From: Macrostomum lignano
Lineage: Eukaryota
Length of the DNA: 64,000 nt
NCBI GenBank assembly: GCA_002269645.1
Contig: NIVC01001912.1
Span: forward strand, 62,001-126,000
Direction of reading: 5' to 3'
This document shows, piece by piece, positions 53,186 to 61,917 of the stretch. The notes below the pieces were generated by a model. It was not told the origin of the DNA, ran no database searches, and was given only the letters and a program-made list of their open reading frames with translations. How positions within the stretch are numbered: the first letter of the stretch is position 1; each line of letters begins with the position of its first letter. The position numbers and the translations under genes were made by a program.

Positions 53186-55325
53186 AGTTGATGAAGCTTT
53201 ATATTATATTAAAACCAATTATTATTAGGCTTAAGACTTTTAAAGTGAACCTAAGATTAAGTTAATTTATTTAATCAAATTGATAGATTTTGCCTAGGCC
53301 TTTAAGTATAATTATTTGGCTGATGCATTTGAAAAAGTTATATATATAAACTTGCCTTTTACTTTAGGCCTAGTCTCTAATATTATATATGATTATGATA
53401 TTAGGTTGATACCTGGGTTTTTTATATGCTTGGATGCATAGTTTGGATGGGAACTAGTTATTTGATGACAGGTTGACTTGGCAACAACCAATTTGGTGAC
53501 AAGTCAATTTGGCAACAGTCAGTTCGGCAACATATGAGGGGGGGGGTTGAAACAGGGCAGTAATTTGTCATCCATTGCGTTGAGTTTGCATATTTACTCT
53601 GATTCCAGAATAAGACAAAATGGTAAGTCTCACATACCACCATACATGTTTTTCCCAGAGTAAATCACACCTGCTAATGTAAAAAATGTGCCATAGAATG
53701 GTAGAGAAAGGTTGAAATTGAAATTGCATTCAGTTAAGTTAATTCAATGCTCGATTTTACATGTAATTGAGACAAAGGGACCATTGCATGGTATGCAAGA
53801 AGATACACAATGAGGTCAGGCTACTGAATCTGCAAACCAAAAGTGGTGAGCTCTTCTTGCCTGATAATCGTGACATCAATATTGACATTGACAGCTGCCG
53901 AGTGCTTTGAGGCTAAAATAGAAGTTCAGCTAGTGATTGAAAGGTTGCACAAGGCATAAGACACAATTTGCCTTGGATCGGCTGGTAATTAAAGAGTGTG
54001 CCATAGACAATGTCATCCAACACACAGCCAAGAAAACTGCCAGATTGAAACAACAGGCAGAGCATGCTTTGCTTGTTCATCTCCCCAATGTTCCAAAAAA
54101 GAAAAAAAAATTGACAACTCACTACACTTGTACTATGACTACTATGCTATTGAACACTGAACATTGAAAAGTTGTCATTCCAATTATTATTCAGTATCTT
54201 TACTAGTTATCACTTTGGTATTTCTAAGTGGGATTGGTTTCCAACTGTTATTGTTGGCATTTATCATTGGTGTTACAATATATTAGTAATACCTATGATG
54301 AAAATGCCCTGTGTTTTTTTTATCAACATTCTTTGTCCCAATGCTTAGTGGCAACACATGGTACATGATATACAATGGTACAAGTACTATATGACAATTC
54401 AATTCTATGTGCAGGCATCTCCAAAAAACAGTATACTCATCTTAAAGTCTGTTGCTTCATTTGACTAGAAATGCAAACAATGCAATCAACAAATACAGGC
54501 AGCAAAGAGAAGTAGAAAAAATGCACTTAATCTGAGTCCAAGACTCCAAGGGGGTGTATACATCTCTTTGAAAATGTTATTCAGCATGATTAAAACAAAA
54601 TTACCTTACTTGAATGGCAAGGACTATAATAGCAATATTTTAAAATTTAATTAGTGTCATATATAGCTTTCTATATATGACATTATATTTATTACTTCAG
54701 TATACTTAAGCTTTCTATATACTTTAGCATTAGCCAAATTGGCTATTGCCAAATTGACTTGTTGCCAAATTGGTTATTGCCTAATTAACTGCAAGCTATT
54801 TGGATCATGTATTAGTATATACCAGGTCTAATTCTAGAGACAGTATTATAAGACAACAATATTATAAGACCTTGTTTGTCCATTAGATCTAAAAAAATAT
54901 GTCATTGATATAGTCCATAGACATAATGTTTCCACTGTGTCATGTATAATATACTAGGTAACTAGGTTATATCACTTTTATGCTAATTTATACCAAAAAA
55001 TGGCAAGTACCCCAATATATGCATATGTATGTCACCTAAACTCATATGCAAAGTATGCAGATATCCCCTGAATTTTGAAATTGCATCCTAAAACTAAAAG
55101 TAGGCCTAGGTGCATTTTAGGTATAGTCTCATTACCTATTTTTCCTTTTTAATATTTATCATAGCAGGAAGTTTTAATATATAAAATGATAAATGAGGTT
55201 AAGGCAATTATTTGGATAGGCTACAAGAAATGATAGCATAACTATGGTTTCGTTTGTTATATTATTTTTTGTTTGTCTGTTTGTCTGTTAGCTGGTGTTG
55301 TCTGTTTTGTTGTGCAGCATTGAAA

Positions 55326-55662
55326 TGTAATAGTGCTCAATTTGCGTGCGCGTGCACTTCTAGTGTTTTCTCCGTATTTCTTTCTGCGTCACCCCACCCC
55401 TGCGTATAGCCTTTTCTAGAAATTTCTTTTTGTTTCTGATTGGCTGAAAACGCGTGAATAACGAGCCCCAACCAATAGAGTGCTTAGTGCCTACCCTATC
55501 GGCGAAATCCGATTGGTTAGGATTTTCTAAGCTGCGTTTTTCACCCTGCCCTCCCCCATCGCGGTCAGTCTATTTAATCAAGCAAGCTGGAACGCAAATA
55601 AATCAAGTTTTTCTCTGACTAAAGAAGTCCCGGCAGTTAAAACTCAAGAATACGCGGCTACA
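55326..55662 (+). repeat. 5' LTR (337 bp)
   Basis: TGTAATAG...GGCTACA; contains CCAAT/ATTGG boxes, TATTTAAT and AATAAA. Confidence 0.97.
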
Positions 55663-55663
55663 T

Positions 55664-55674
55664 TGGCGACCACG
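55664..55674 (+). other. Primer-binding site TGGCGACCACG
   Basis: Begins 2 nt after the LTR. Its complement CGTGGTCG-CCA fits a tRNA 3' end, possibly Arg-type with a GACCACG acceptor stem (inference). Confidence 0.75.
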
Positions 55675-55686
55675 CCAGTTTTCCAC

Positions 55687-56622
55687 ATGTGGAATAACGA
55701 CGACTACCTGGAACTACGTGGACGTCTCGTCGGACGACGGCGCAACGCAGGCGACGAGGCAGCTTCCGTTTCTACAGAGTCTACGAACGCGTCCAACCCC
55801 TTCGTGTCGATGACCACAGTCAGCGAAGCCACAAATCCCTTCCTCGTTGCCAACGACCTTCAGAGGGCACACTCGGCGGAAGTCTCAACCAACCCGTTCC
55901 TTGAAGACATCGACCAAGCGTCAGGGCAGGCCTCAGCAATGCAGCAGTACGCCTATCCTCCAGCTCACGGATACGCAGCGCTGCCAGACTACAATCCAGT
56001 ACCGGCTCTTCCGCCAGTACCTAAGCCTGCACCGTACAACGGTCGGGAGGATTTCGACGACTTTCTCATCAGGATCAGCGCCTATATTAGCCGGTTCCCA
56101 GGCCTTCGAGACGCCGACAAGATCAACACCCTGACTGCGTTCCTCGGACCGGCTTTTGCAACGTACACCACCTGGCTGGCGATCCAGTGTGCCTACGTCG
56201 GACTGCCACCGGGGACAACCCTGGACCAGCTACCTGGTGTCCGCTATGAGGGCCTCGTTGAACACCTCCGGTCTCGTCACGGCGGGGCCAAGAGTGCAGC
56301 GTTACTTCGCCGCGAGTTCCGTGCTCGGCAGCGTCGACCAGAGGAGAGCTTCGAAACGTACCTGACGGAGCTTCAACGGCTAGCTGCAAGGGCATACCCG
56401 GACCCAAGAGCTCAGGCTTACGTCCAACAGACAGTTAGCGAGCAGTTCATGCATGGTCTCAATGACGGCTACGTCACCGAGCGACTACTGAATCAACCAA
56501 CACCACCAAGCACTGTGGAGCAGGTTCTACGAATAGCCCAGCAGCTTCGAGAAACCCGGGCCTACATGGATGCTGGCCGTGGCGAAATCCAGCCCCAGCA
56601 ACCGAGACCACCACAGAGCTAA
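55687..56622 (+). CDS. gag: Gag (311 aa to TAA); same frame continues to 56811 with a CCHC zinc knuckle
   Basis: PAPYNGREDFDDFL and RQRRPEESFETYLTELQRLAARAYP are gag-type motifs; CFGCGQPGHIRRNC lies after the TAA. Confidence 0.85.
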   Translation: MWNNDDYLELRGRLVGRRRNAGDEAASVSTESTNASNPFVSMTTVSEATNPFLVANDLQRAHSAEVSTNPFLEDIDQASGQASAMQQYAYPPAHGYAALPDYNPVPALPPVPKPAPYNGREDFDDFLIRISAYISRFPGLRDADKINTLTAFLGPAFATYTTWLAIQCAYVGLPPGTTLDQLPGVRYEGLVEHLRSRHGGAKSAALLRREFRARQRRPEESFETYLTELQRLAARAYPDPRAQAYVQQTVSEQFMHGLNDGYVTERLLNQPTPPSTVEQVLRIAQQLRETRAYMDAGRGEIQPQQPRPPQS

Positions 56623-56753
56623 CTTTCAGCGCCACCGAAACCACTGATGCCTCAGCAGCCTGCCTCATCTGGCGGTCGAGGACAGCAACGACAGCAATCA
56701 CCGGCTAGTTCCAACTGTTTCGGCTGCGGTCAGCCGGGCCACATCCGACGCAA

Positions 56754-59700
56754 TTGCCCAAACGCCGAGGGGGCTGGTTCACGAGGCCAGCACCGGCCCT
56801 CTCAGCACTAACGCATTCGGCCTCAACACCACGCCTCAGCAGCTGCCAGCCTGGCCAGGTGCGCTTCGTCACAGCGCGCATCCTTAGACGACGGCGCCAC
56901 TGTCTGATCGACACCGGGGCAGAGGTGTCCTGCATCAGCGATGACATATGTAAGAAAGCTAGGCGGCGGCTGCAGCCCAGCAGCATCATCATAAGAGGCG
57001 TGGATGGCAACCTACAGTCTGTGCTGGGCGAGACTACTTTGGCAGTGACTCTGGGAACCGTACAAGTCCATCATCGTTTCGTCGTACTCGAGAAGCTTCA
57101 CCCGACGTCCGTCATCCTGGGCTGTGACTTCCTCAGTGAACACGACGTCTCGGTCCATCTCCAAGCCGGTTGCATCACTTTCAACAGCCTAGGCGTGTCG
57201 ATTCCAGCTCGAAAAAGTAAAGAGGCAGCACAGACCTGCAAGCTCGTATCAGCGGCCTCCGTGCAGCTGCAGCCAGGGGAGCGCTGGATAATCCCCGTTA
57301 AACCAGCAAAGTCGGCCTCGTGGACGCGATCGGAGTGTCCAGGAGTCGTCACCGGCACAAGATCACAGGGGCTCCTGGTGGGTCGTTGTGTTGCCAAGCT
57401 GGTCGAGAGAGGCATGGGCCTAGCAGTCATCAACGTCGACGACCACACGGTCAACATCAGCGACGGCGACATTGTTGGCATCTTTTCCCCGCTAGGAAGT
57501 CAGCCATTCGTTCAGCAATCGGGTGCCGCTGGCAGCACGGCGGCGACGGCCGCTGGCAGCACGGCGGCGACGGCCGCTGGCAGCACGGCGGCGACGGCCA
57601 CTGGCAGCACGGCGGCGACGGCCACTGGCAGCACGGCGGCGACGGCCGCTGGCAGCACGGCGGCGACGGCCGCTGGCAGCACGGCGGCGACGGCCGCTGG
57701 CAGCACGGCGGCGACGGTCGCGGTCAGCACGGCTACATCAACAACAGCTTTAGCGACGGACTTACCTCGCACCAACTGGCTGAACGACGTGCACATCGAA
57801 AGCTCTATCTCCGTCGAAGAGCAACAGTCGGTCAAGGATTTGCTGTTAGAGTTCAGCACCGTTTTTGCATCCCCTGGCAATGCTGGTCGAACTGCAGTCC
57901 TGCAGCATCGCATCGACACCGGCGGGGCAAGGCCGATCCGGCAGGGTTTGCGGCGTGCAGCGCGTCCAGTCATCGACAAGCAGGCCGAATTGATCGACGA
58001 CATGCTGACCAAAGGAGTAATCCGGCCGTCTTCATCGCCTTGGGCTTCGCCAATCGTGCTTGTTCGTAAGAAGGACGGGACAGCGCGCTTTTGCTTAGAC
58101 TATCGACTGCTCAATGAGGTCACCAAGCCGGACGCTTTTCCAATTCCGAGGATCGACGACACACTCGATGCGCTGCAAGGCAACGCCTACTTCTCGGCAC
58201 TCGATCTGGAGAGTGGCTACTGGCAGGTTGAGGTCGAGGAGCGCGACAAAGAGAAAACTGCTTTCATCTGCCATCAAGGCCTCTTCGAGTTCAACGTCAT
58301 GCCGTTTGGTCTGCGCAATGCCCCGGCAACCTTTCAACGCCTCATGCAGCTGGTGCTCCAAGGCCTGACCTGGCAAGCGTGCCTGGTCTTCATCGACGAC
58401 GTTATTGTCATGGGCCGGACTATCGAGGAGCACAACTATCGGCTGCGGGCGGTGTTCGAGCGGCTGCGGGACGCGAACCTACGCTTGAAGCCATCTAAAT
58501 GCCATTTCGCCAACACCACGATGATCGTCTTGGGCCATCGAGTTTCCAAGTCGGGTATCACCGTCGACGAGTCAAAGACTGCTGCGATCCGAGACTGGCC
58601 TACACCCCGAACTTCCAAGGAGGTCAAGAGCTTCCTAGGTCTCGCAGCCTACTATAGACGGTTCATTCGGGATTATTCAAAGATCGCCGAGCCGCTACGA
58701 CGCCTGACGGTTCCGACAGAAAGGTTTCAGTGGACGTCCAAGGCCCAAGAAGCATTCGACCAACTGAAGGCAACACTGACCTCTGCTCCAATCCTCGCCT
58801 TCCCGGATACTAGTGCGACCAGCTCGGAGTTCATTCTGGACACTGACGCCAGCGACTGCGCCATTGGTGCGGTACTCTCTCAACTGCAGGCGGGCGAAGA
58901 ACGAGTCATCGCGTACTCCAGCAGAGCACTAACAAAAGCCGAGCGCAACTACTGTGTAACGAGGCGGGAGCTGCTGTCCGTCGTTGAGCATGTCAGGAAG
59001 TTCCGGAATTACCTGCTGCCTCGGAAGTTCACCGTGCGGGTCGATCATCAGTCTCTAACGCACCTGCTGACATTCAAGGAGCCCGAAGGTCAACTCGCGC
59101 GGTGGCTGCAGACGCTAGACGAGTTCGACTTCAGAGTACTCTATCGGCCGGGCCGTCAACACAACAACGCCGATGCGCTGTCCCGTCAGCAGCAGCGCTG
59201 TACCAACCAGTGTCGGGTGTGTCGACCAACAAATGAGACCACCAGCAGGACGACATCCTCGGTTGCCTGCCAGACCGACGCCAACAGTGATGCCGCCGCT
59301 GCCGCCCAGATCAACGCAGCGACCATCAAGCTAGTGTCGACGGCTACCGACGAAGCTGTTCAGACCGACAATGTGCATGTCTGCGTCGGCACCGTGCCAT
59401 CAAGGCGCAAGCAAATCCATCAGCCCCGGTCGGACGACAGCGAAGAAAGCAGCAGCAGCGAGGACGACACCAACGAAGATGAATCCGCAGCGCCAGCGGC
59501 AGACAACAGGCCACCGACGCTACGTATGCTTCAGCTGCAGGATCCGGTTATCAGTCCGGTGTTCCGACTGCTGGCCGACGGCAAGACTAGGTTTACCGAC
59601 CGACAACGCGACCGAGTACCGCCGGAGAGCCTGGTGCTGGCGCAGAAGGTGCATGACTTGTGTTTCGTGAACGGTACACTGCACAGGCTGGTCAACACAA

Positions 59701-60869
59701 AGCCAGTACCCGTCATTCCCCGCTGCCGACAACGCGAATTTGTCGACGAGATTCACAACGTCGGCCACCTGGGCGAAGTCAAGACGCTGGCCAGCCTAAA
59801 GACGCGTTGCTACTGGCCAAAAATGTCGGAGAGCGTCCGGTTGGCCGTTCGGTCATGCCAGGTTTGCCAGCGGGCAAAGACTCCGGTTATCAAGCGGGCG
59901 CCGCTACAGTCCATCACTGCAGGGTTTCCAATGCAGCGTGTCGGGTTCGACATTGTCAAGGTCGGCGCTTCCAGAAACGGCAACGATCGGATCCTGAGCA
60001 TCGTCGACTACTTCAGCAAGTGGACGGAGCTGGTGCCGATTCCGGACGAGAAGGCGACGACAATTGCCAAGGCCCTCTTCAACAACTGGATCTCCAGGTG
60101 GGGTGCTCCGCATATTCTCCACTCCGACCGCGGCAAGAGCATCGATGGCCGCATCATTCGCAGTCTCTGTACACTATTGGAGGTCGACAAGACTCGAACG
60201 TCGGGCTATCATCCTCAATGTGACGGCCTCGTGGAGAGATTTCATCGGACACTCCATCAGATGTTGCGCTGCCACCTTCAAACTGTCGATCCGCTGGACT
60301 GGGAGGACGCCCTGCCGTACTGTCTCCTAGCCTATCGAAGCAGCATCAGCGCGACGACCGGATTTTCCCCACATTTCCTGATGACGGGCCGGGAGGTGGT
60401 TCTGCCATTGGACGTTGTCTATCGGTCCCCAGAGCCTCCATCCGTCGTCGGCCAGTACGCAGTAGAGACCATTCAACGACTGCAGGACGCCTTTGACGCT
60501 GTGCGGAGGTCAACTGGCGCGGCTCAACGACGGCAGAAGCGGTACTACGATCTGAAAGCCCAGAAGCGCAAGTTTCGCACCGGCGATCTAGTGTGGCTGT
60601 TCGTTCCGCCTGCTGTGCTGTCCAGGACCAACTGTCTGCCTCCGAAGCATCAATCACCGTGGACAGGCCCATTTAAAGTCATGCGCAAGACATCACCTGT
60701 CAACTACTTGGTGCGGCCGATCAATTACACGGACGGGGAGATCAAGGGGCGCGTCGTGCATGTCAACAAGTTGAAGCGAGCGTGTCTGCAACGGACCCAG
60801 TCTGCTCAGCGTGCTGATCAGGACGCCAGTAGTGACGATGAAGGGCAACTTGTTGACGCTGAGGACTGA
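56754..60869 (+). CDS. pol: Pol polyprotein (protease, RT, RNase H, integrase)
   Basis: LIDTGA; PWASPIVLVRKKDG..FCLDYR..N; MPFGLRNAPATFQR; FIDD; LDTDASDCAIGAVL; ELL; NADALSR; H..H...C..C; FD/HSDRG/VERF; GPFKV. In the -1 frame relative to gag. Confidence 0.97.
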   Translation: MPKRRGGWFTRPAPALSALTHSASTPRLSSCQPGQVRFVTARILRRRRHCLIDTGAEVSCISDDICKKARRRLQPSSIIIRGVDGNLQSVLGETTLAVTLGTVQVHHRFVVLEKLHPTSVILGCDFLSEHDVSVHLQAGCITFNSLGVSIPARKSKEAAQTCKLVSAASVQLQPGERWIIPVKPAKSASWTRSECPGVVTGTRSQGLLVGRCVAKLVERGMGLAVINVDDHTVNISDGDIVGIFSPLGSQPFVQQSGAAGSTAATAAGSTAATAAGSTAATATGSTAATATGSTAATAAGSTAATAAGSTAATAAGSTAATVAVSTATSTTALATDLPRTNWLNDVHIESSISVEEQQSVKDLLLEFSTVFASPGNAGRTAVLQHRIDTGGARPIRQGLRRAARPVIDKQAELIDDMLTKGVIRPSSSPWASPIVLVRKKDGTARFCLDYRLLNEVTKPDAFPIPRIDDTLDALQGNAYFSALDLESGYWQVEVEERDKEKTAFICHQGLFEFNVMPFGLRNAPATFQRLMQLVLQGLTWQACLVFIDDVIVMGRTIEEHNYRLRAVFERLRDANLRLKPSKCHFANTTMIVLGHRVSKSGITVDESKTAAIRDWPTPRTSKEVKSFLGLAAYYRRFIRDYSKIAEPLRRLTVPTERFQWTSKAQEAFDQLKATLTSAPILAFPDTSATSSEFILDTDASDCAIGAVLSQLQAGEERVIAYSSRALTKAERNYCVTRRELLSVVEHVRKFRNYLLPRKFTVRVDHQSLTHLLTFKEPEGQLARWLQTLDEFDFRVLYRPGRQHNNADALSRQQQRCTNQCRVCRPTNETTSRTTSSVACQTDANSDAAAAAQINAATIKLVSTATDEAVQTDNVHVCVGTVPSRRKQIHQPRSDDSEESSSSEDDTNEDESAAPAADNRPPTLRMLQLQDPVISPVFRLLADGKTRFTDRQRDRVPPESLVLAQKVHDLCFVNGTLHRLVNTKPVPVIPRCRQREFVDEIHNVGHLGEVKTLASLKTRCYWPKMSESVRLAVRSCQVCQRAKTPVIKRAPLQSITAGFPMQRVGFDIVKVGASRNGNDRILSIVDYFSKWTELVPIPDEKATTIAKALFNNWISRWGAPHILHSDRGKSIDGRIIRSLCTLLEVDKTRTSGYHPQCDGLVERFHRTLHQMLRCHLQTVDPLDWEDALPYCLLAYRSSISATTGFSPHFLMTGREVVLPLDVVYRSPEPPSVVGQYAVETIQRLQDAFDAVRRSTGAAQRRQKRYYDLKAQKRKFRTGDLVWLFVPPAVLSRTNCLPPKHQSPWTGPFKVMRKTSPVNYLVRPINYTDGEIKGRVVHVNKLKRACLQRTQSAQRADQDASSDDEGQLVDAED
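57525..57716 (+). repeat. In-frame 24-bp tandem repeat x8 in pol (AAGSTAAT)
   Basis: GCCGCTGGCAGCACGGCGGCGACG x8; copies 4-5 carry GCCACT. Confidence 0.96.
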
Positions 60870-61111
60870 CTAACGCACGTTGAGGACTGACTGACTGGTT
60901 GTAGCCAGCAGTTTTGCTTTATAGGTCGTAGGTCTAGAACTTTTTAATAGCGTCTATCTATTAGCTTAGTAATCCTGATTTAGATTTAATTGTTCGAAAC
61001 CCGGTTATCTCGAATTGTTCTATTTGCTACAGCTGGTTCTGTTCTTCCCTATTGGAGTAGCTTTCATCTGTCGTTTCCACCCCTTGGGTTTAATGAGGAC
61101 ATTAAACTGTT

Positions 61112-61121
61112 GAAAGGGGAG
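61112..61121 (+). other. Polypurine tract GAAAGGGGAG
   Basis: 4 nt upstream of the 3' LTR. Confidence 0.85.
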
Positions 61122-61125
61122 CTTT

Positions 61126-61462
61126 TGTAATAGTGCTCAATTTGCGTGCGCGTGCACTTCTAGTGTTTTCTCCGTATTTCTTTCTGCGTCACCCCACCCC
61201 TGCGTATAGCCTTTTCTAGAAATTTCTTTTTGTTTCTGATTGGCTGAAAACGCGTGAATAACGAGCCCCAACCAATAGAGTGCTTAGTGCCTACCCTATC
61301 GGCGAAATCCGATTGGTTAGGATTTTCTAAGCTGCGTTTTTCACCCTGCCCTCCCCCATCGCGGTCAGTCTATTTAATCAAGCAAGCTGGAACGCAAATA
61401 AATCAAGTTTTTCTCTGACTAAAGAAGTCCCGGCAGTTAAAACTCAAGAATACGCGGCTACA
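61126..61462 (+). repeat. 3' LTR (337 bp)
   Basis: No differences from the 5' LTR on reading. Confidence 0.97.
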
Positions 61463-61917
61463 GAAAGTCTATTCTAAAAAATGAGCATTTTAAAATACTT
61501 TATTAATATTAGTATAACAAAAAACTATCAACTGTACGCCATGGGTAAAATAATATTATTTGTATTACAAGCTACTCTATTATATGGAAAATTTATTTTA
61601 TTTTTTATTTTACTGTAGCGACGTCTCACTTAGTACAAAAAACTTCTCTAGATAGCCATAGATAGAAAGCTATGCTAACTAGGCTGTCACGAGGAGGTTA
61701 ATTAGGCGCCGGTAGATCAATATAATTTTTGACGTGAGGCAAACTATCTTAGCCTCTTCAAAATCGTTACCGTAGATCATGATCCTACTATATCGGGGGG
61801 GGGGGGTCATAACCTAAATTCCGCATCGCTGAAAGACGGAATCTTTCGGAAGCTCGAATTTTTATATCATGTCAAAAACTCTTGCTTCTGCACCAGCTAC
61901 AAACATGTATAACAACT

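Follow-up and report, generated by a model that had tools for sequence, protein, structure and literature searches.

The window, a 64,000-nt stretch of the Macrostomum lignano genome, contains at 55326-61462 a complete LTR retrotransposon whose features are collected in Table 1. Paired TG..CA LTRs, a target-site duplication, a primer-binding-site-like sequence, a polypurine tract, a gag with a CCHC knuckle and a pol ordered protease, reverse transcriptase (RT), RNase H and integrase (PR-RT-RH-IN) identify it as a Ty3/gypsy (Mdg4) element. The pol order comes from Pfam, which found zf-CCHC only in the gag piece that follows a premature in-frame TAA (E 8.5e-6), and a weak Retrotrans_gag signal in the piece before it (20.5 bits, under the cut-off of 24.1); no env was seen downstream of pol. 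Because its two LTRs are identical, the insertion is very young; of three homologous contigs, one carries it and two show the empty site. Between protease and RT, an array of 24-nt units encodes AAGSTAAT-like repeats whose copy number differs among sister copies, and the sister elements measure 6113-6310 nt. Dense minisatellite arrays with units of 8 to 51 nt occupy 600-53200 of the window, and just upstream of the 5' LTR (55236-55274) lies a short, highly repeated element at which contig depth jumps and many contigs have loose ends.

Table 1. Features of the retrotransposon and its gag/pol junction, in window positions
Feature	Position	Strand	Remark
Target-site duplication GAAA	left 55322..55325, right 61463-61466	+	empty site seen on two homologous contigs
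5' LTR, 337 nt, TG..CA	55326..55662	+	equal to 3' LTR letter for letter
Canonical heat-shock element TTCnnGAAnnTTC	55414..55426, also 61214-61226	+	one per LTR
Primer-binding-site-like sequence, begins TGG	55664..55678	+	putative role, from position
gag, from its first ATG to the TAA that ends it family-wide (56809-56811)	55687..56811	+	interrupted in window copy
Premature TAA, private to window copy	56620..56622	+	mutation or assembly error
TAG that shuts pol (-1 frame) ahead of the gag/pol overlap	56706..56708	+	
pol frame: protease, RT, RNase H, integrase	56709..60869	+	1386 codons
CCHC zinc knuckle CFGCGQPGHIRRNC	56716..56757	+	gag frame
Slippery heptamer C_CCA_AAC (X_XXY_YYZ, gag frame)	56757..56763	+	predicted -1 shift site
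Predicted H-type pseudoknot	56767..56824	+	gag stop sits in last loop
24-nt in-frame tandem array within pol	57525..57735 (approximate ends)	+	varies among copies
Polypurine tract	61112..61121	+	
3' LTR	61126..61462	+	

The family appears to have been catalogued already. A 17-nt string from the LTR start has seven matches in supplement 5 of PMC12801592, the first ones in the alignment of Mlig-id38, and about 160 LTR letters of one Mlig-id38 member match the window LTR by eye. In the available text of that paper, Mlig-id38 is a strongly heat-induced M. lignano family of the Ty3/Mdg4 (gypsy) superfamily, in the Gmr1/Osvaldo cluster, with 20 copies, one heat-shock element (HSE) per LTR and the order PR-RT-RH-IN; the corresponding values for the window family are 21 copies and, likewise, one HSE per LTR. 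Judged by LTR sequence, HSE number and copy number, the window element thus apparently matches Mlig-id38. The window copy differs from the available description of Mlig-id38 in its private gag stop, and the words 'gag' and 'frameshift' have no occurrence in the main text of PMC12801592. The nearest named protein is an M. lignano hypothetical protein at 78% identity.

The premature stop had attracted attention in a sequence-only reading, and its observations on the letters were correct: the gag frame runs CCA CAG AGC TAA CTT TCA GCG, remains open after the TAA for 62 sense codons (56623-56808) that include the sole zinc knuckle, and closes at the second TAA, while the upstream TAG makes pol, which lies -1 to gag, enterable only downstream of the premature stop. 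That reading raised the possibility of programmed double recoding, in which readthrough of UAA-C would be followed by a -1 frameshift to give three nested proteins, and it proposed as a fallback a fresh nonsense mutation or a base-call error. In favour of double recoding are the in-frame position of the TAA, the C that follows it, and the intact knuckle and open pol downstream.

A comparison with sister copies decides against double recoding. A search of the animal's own genome with 56400-57000 as query (40 of 49 candidates scored, 30 loci fetched) yielded 21 near-identical copies (99-100% identity) including that of the window, and each of the other 20 reads a sense codon at the position of the TAA, the gag frame running on to the knuckle; in three copies at 93% identity a different sense codon stands there, and at the remaining fetched loci the codon could not be aligned usefully (four distant loci misaligned, two not covering the site). 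Flanking sequences reveal that two sister pairs are each one insertion seen on two contigs, and the 20 sisters therefore amount to at least 18 separate insertions. The 21-mer containing the TAA has a single exact match in the 764 Mb genome, the window copy itself, compared with 15 for the 21-mer containing the sisters' codon. The several independent full-length copies with TAA that the sequence-only reading had suggested seeking are thus not found (0 of 20 sisters), and readthrough followed by frameshifting is left unsupported. A sense codon in sister copies is the very outcome that this reading had named as its refutation. Nor was an equivalent stop seen in copies of four related families in which 386-474 codons of open gag frame lead up to the knuckle. 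The 100 nt 3' of the TAA show no folding stability beyond that of shuffles (z +0.7). UAA is a weak readthrough codon, and none of the four animal-virus genera covered by the available part of a review (PMC13517186) uses it as the stop that is read through. Because all sisters have a sense codon, double recoding is refuted at the level of the family, and we regard it as exceedingly improbable. As the TAA occurs in only 1 of 21 near-identical copies, a recent mutation or a sequencing error likely accounts for it rather than a recoding signal, and it is this fallback that the private nature of the stop supports.

The frequency of such stops is no more than chance gives. Single changes that create a stop make up 128 of the 3357 possible in the window gag (3.8%), which equals the neutral expectation. 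Private substitutions were counted in 16 of the 21 aligned rows, leaving out two truncated and mis-anchored rows (L033, L048), a diverged one (L051) and two whose flanks are those of another copy (L035, L047). The 16 copies have 0-20 private substitutions each (median 1.5), the window copy having two, and 2 of the 67 are nonsense (3%), the second being a TGA elsewhere in the gag of another copy; this rate is what neutral decay predicts.

Whether the TAA exists in the animal is a separate matter, on which our judgement leans modestly towards a true mutation over an assembly error. That the stop arose when a multi-copy repeat was assembled or polished, a sub-case of the preferred explanation, is a serious possibility that falls somewhat short of an even chance. 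The second private substitution of the window copy, at 56646, is synonymous and lies only 26 nt from that at 56620, so that both cluster within 27 nt; by a rough estimate, such spacing has a chance of about 1% if the two changes are independent, pointing to a single event, so far unexplained, or to faulty assembly at this spot. Several sister copies also have single-base indels that resemble long-read errors. The error-like differences elsewhere are, however, mostly indels, whereas the two substitutions considered here are transitions, the class most often seen among private substitutions (in a count that included two mis-anchored rows). At 56620 and 56646, Logan contigs from 4 of the 24 listed runs, representing at most three samples, carry no letter other than that of the sisters, and the TAA is unseen in them, as expected of an error; yet such contigs drop rare variants and would lose a 1-in-20 variant anyway, so they display the state of the family rather than the absence of an allele, and absence of the T from animals cannot be shown by them. 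None of the contig pieces listed for these four runs spans the junction at the 5' end of the insertion.

Should the TAA be real, the product of the window copy would be a 311-residue Gag lacking nucleocapsid, with hardly any Pol, and its transposition would depend on proteins supplied by sister copies. A more elaborate consequence would be that this heat-inducible copy releases large amounts of nucleocapsid-less Gag, which would co-assemble with the particles of its active sisters and poison them as an incipient, home-grown restriction factor; leaky UAA-C readthrough together with the -1 frameshift would in that case yield the three nested products from a single locus. We consider this highly unlikely, and no positive evidence speaks for it.

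The frameshift half of the earlier proposal fares better: it has the support of a slippery heptamer, which is conserved, and of a predicted pseudoknot, neither of which the sequence-only reading had located. C_CCA_AAC is the only X_XXY_YYZ word within 56560-56950 and stands in the gag frame; an in-frame heptamer arose in 359 of 20000 shuffles of the gag/pol overlap. It overlaps the last cysteine of the knuckle and the Pro-Asn that follows. Pattern searches and the stretches retrieved from them led to four related families (B to E); of the 57 matches of one such search, only 20 further regions were retrieved. Families B, C and D share 80-91% amino-acid identity in RT with the window family (A) or with each other, and family E has 66% in RT and 42% in Gag. 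In all five families pol lies in the -1 frame and the same heptamer follows straight after the knuckle, in the zero frame and inside the gag/pol overlap, and gag is open from far upstream to the knuckle in copies that look undamaged. Across A-D, four-fold sites have mostly diverged (28/89 to 46/93 identical), and of the 70 letters of the junction 57-65 are identical, a level to be read with the dual coding of the junction in mind, which alone raises conservation.

Several individual loci from these searches deserve mention. L088 (2075-2140), from the family whose RT is 66% identical, has the same heptamer and a pseudoknot with a 7-nt spacer; a copy of the window family is found some 2 kb away from it on contig C99. 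At L057, L060, L062, L064 and L066 (~2019-2050), which belong to families C and D, the G-run just 3' of the heptamer differs in length, and in two of the five gag and pol are in one frame; these differences are either homopolymer errors or polymerase slippage. Pattern matches L080-L085 were dropped, having no knuckle with pol, and L079 is a decayed family-C copy. L071 (~2000-2700) was set aside as well: it is no retrotransposon junction and belongs to a host gene in which tandem CCHC knuckles run into the start of a DEAD-box-like helicase, which we take to be of the vasa type (vasa-like). Further pattern matches, on C296 and C646, are copies of this type.

Downstream of the heptamer, an exhaustive search returned an H-type pseudoknot in each of the five families, compared with 1, 1, 9, 3 and 1 of 300 dinucleotide shuffles, respectively; the structure was first read off the same sequences on which it was later tested. 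In the window, stem 1 would pair 56767-56778 with 56792-56803, with a 7-bp core at 56771-56777 and 56793-56799, and stem 2 would pair 56783-56788 with 56819-56824. In an alignment of families A-D, 98.4% of cells can pair, against 37-61% in slid controls, several family C and D copies with G-run length changes after the heptamer being left out of this and the other structure alignments. Two pairs of stem 2 are changed on both sides among A-D, and in the stem-1 core, with family E included, one pair is changed on both sides and another on one side; such doubly changed pairs are no more numerous than in column shuffles (218/500 for A-D, 282/500 with E), and in family D the outermost pair is lost from both stems. 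Counted from the heptamer, stem 1 at its full length begins after only 3 nt in families A-C, and the 7-bp core after 7 nt; spacers at -1 frameshift sites are commonly 5-9 nt (PMC5009743). ViennaRNA, which cannot fold pseudoknots, returned stem 1 only (z -2.2), and an Rfam search of 55326-57200 found nothing at E 1 or below. The middle loop of 3-4 nt is long for a classical H-type knot.

Pol might alternatively be made from a spliced or re-initiated message. The word CACTAAC at 56806-56812 resembles a branch point placed upstream of CAG acceptors, and pyrimidine-rich CAG sites are found nearby in the window copy. This word is not kept in families B-E, however, whereas the heptamer and both stems are conserved and pol is -1 to gag throughout the five families; moreover, no methionine stands ahead of the protease DTG motif. 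We therefore hold such a message to be very unlikely. A contig joint that skips 59 nt (56308-56368) was rejected as an intron: the skipped piece has GC..CG ends and the runs concerned are not recorded as RNA, one of them being DNA-like, and for these reasons the joint is read as a deletion in a diverged subfamily.

Taken together, a stop private to one copy combined with a family-wide, single -1 frameshift, likely stimulated by a pseudoknot, is very probably the right account of the locus. The TAA would be a chance nonsense mutation or an assembly error in one copy of a young Ty3/gypsy family, in which Gag would come from normal translation and Gag-Pol from a single -1 slip at C_CCA_AAC. Pol is likely reached by this one predicted shift, and the downstream predicted pseudoknot is likely its stimulator. 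Ribosomes would slip directly after the last knuckle cysteine, so that most products would be full Gag and a minority Gag-Pol.

As a one-copy lesion in a catalogued family, the flagged stop itself matters little; the lesson is that any stop seen in one copy of a repeat has to be compared with the other copies. The by-product has modest value: it is a compact predicted -1 signal with compensatory pairs that is common to five retrotransposon families, one of which is reported to be strongly heat-induced in a flatworm amenable to transgenesis (PMC12801592). The signal offers a test of whether frameshift efficiency, and hence the Gag:Gag-Pol ratio, changes under heat shock. No description of it was found in the literature, among open-licence papers.

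The stop and the frameshift signal compare very differently with known systems. Readthrough in Moloney MuLV and Candida Tca2 likewise involves a stop inside the path along which a polyprotein is read, but there the stop is fixed in the family, follows the nucleocapsid, is UAG or UGA, leads into an in-frame pol and has a pseudoknot on its 3' side (PMC5009743, PMC2194720, as far as their available text describes them). Unlike these, the stop in the window is private, is UAA, precedes the nucleocapsid and is without 3' structure. The likely frameshift signal, by comparison, is a new instance of a standard mechanism. Pol lies in the -1 frame in 28 of the 51 animal retroelements of a 2003 survey, as summarised in PMC5009743, and 9 of 14 CsRn1-like AgCR elements overlap by -1 (PMC2582038). 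Retroviruses, many animal LTR retrotransposons, PEG10 and PNMA3 likewise combine a heptamer in the gag frame, a -1 pol and a 3' stimulator (PMC5009743), the last of which is predicted here. Compared with the X_XXY_YYZ and pseudoknot systems described in the available text of that review, the present signal differs in that its heptamer overlaps a knuckle cysteine and the gag stop would lie inside a loop of the predicted pseudoknot.
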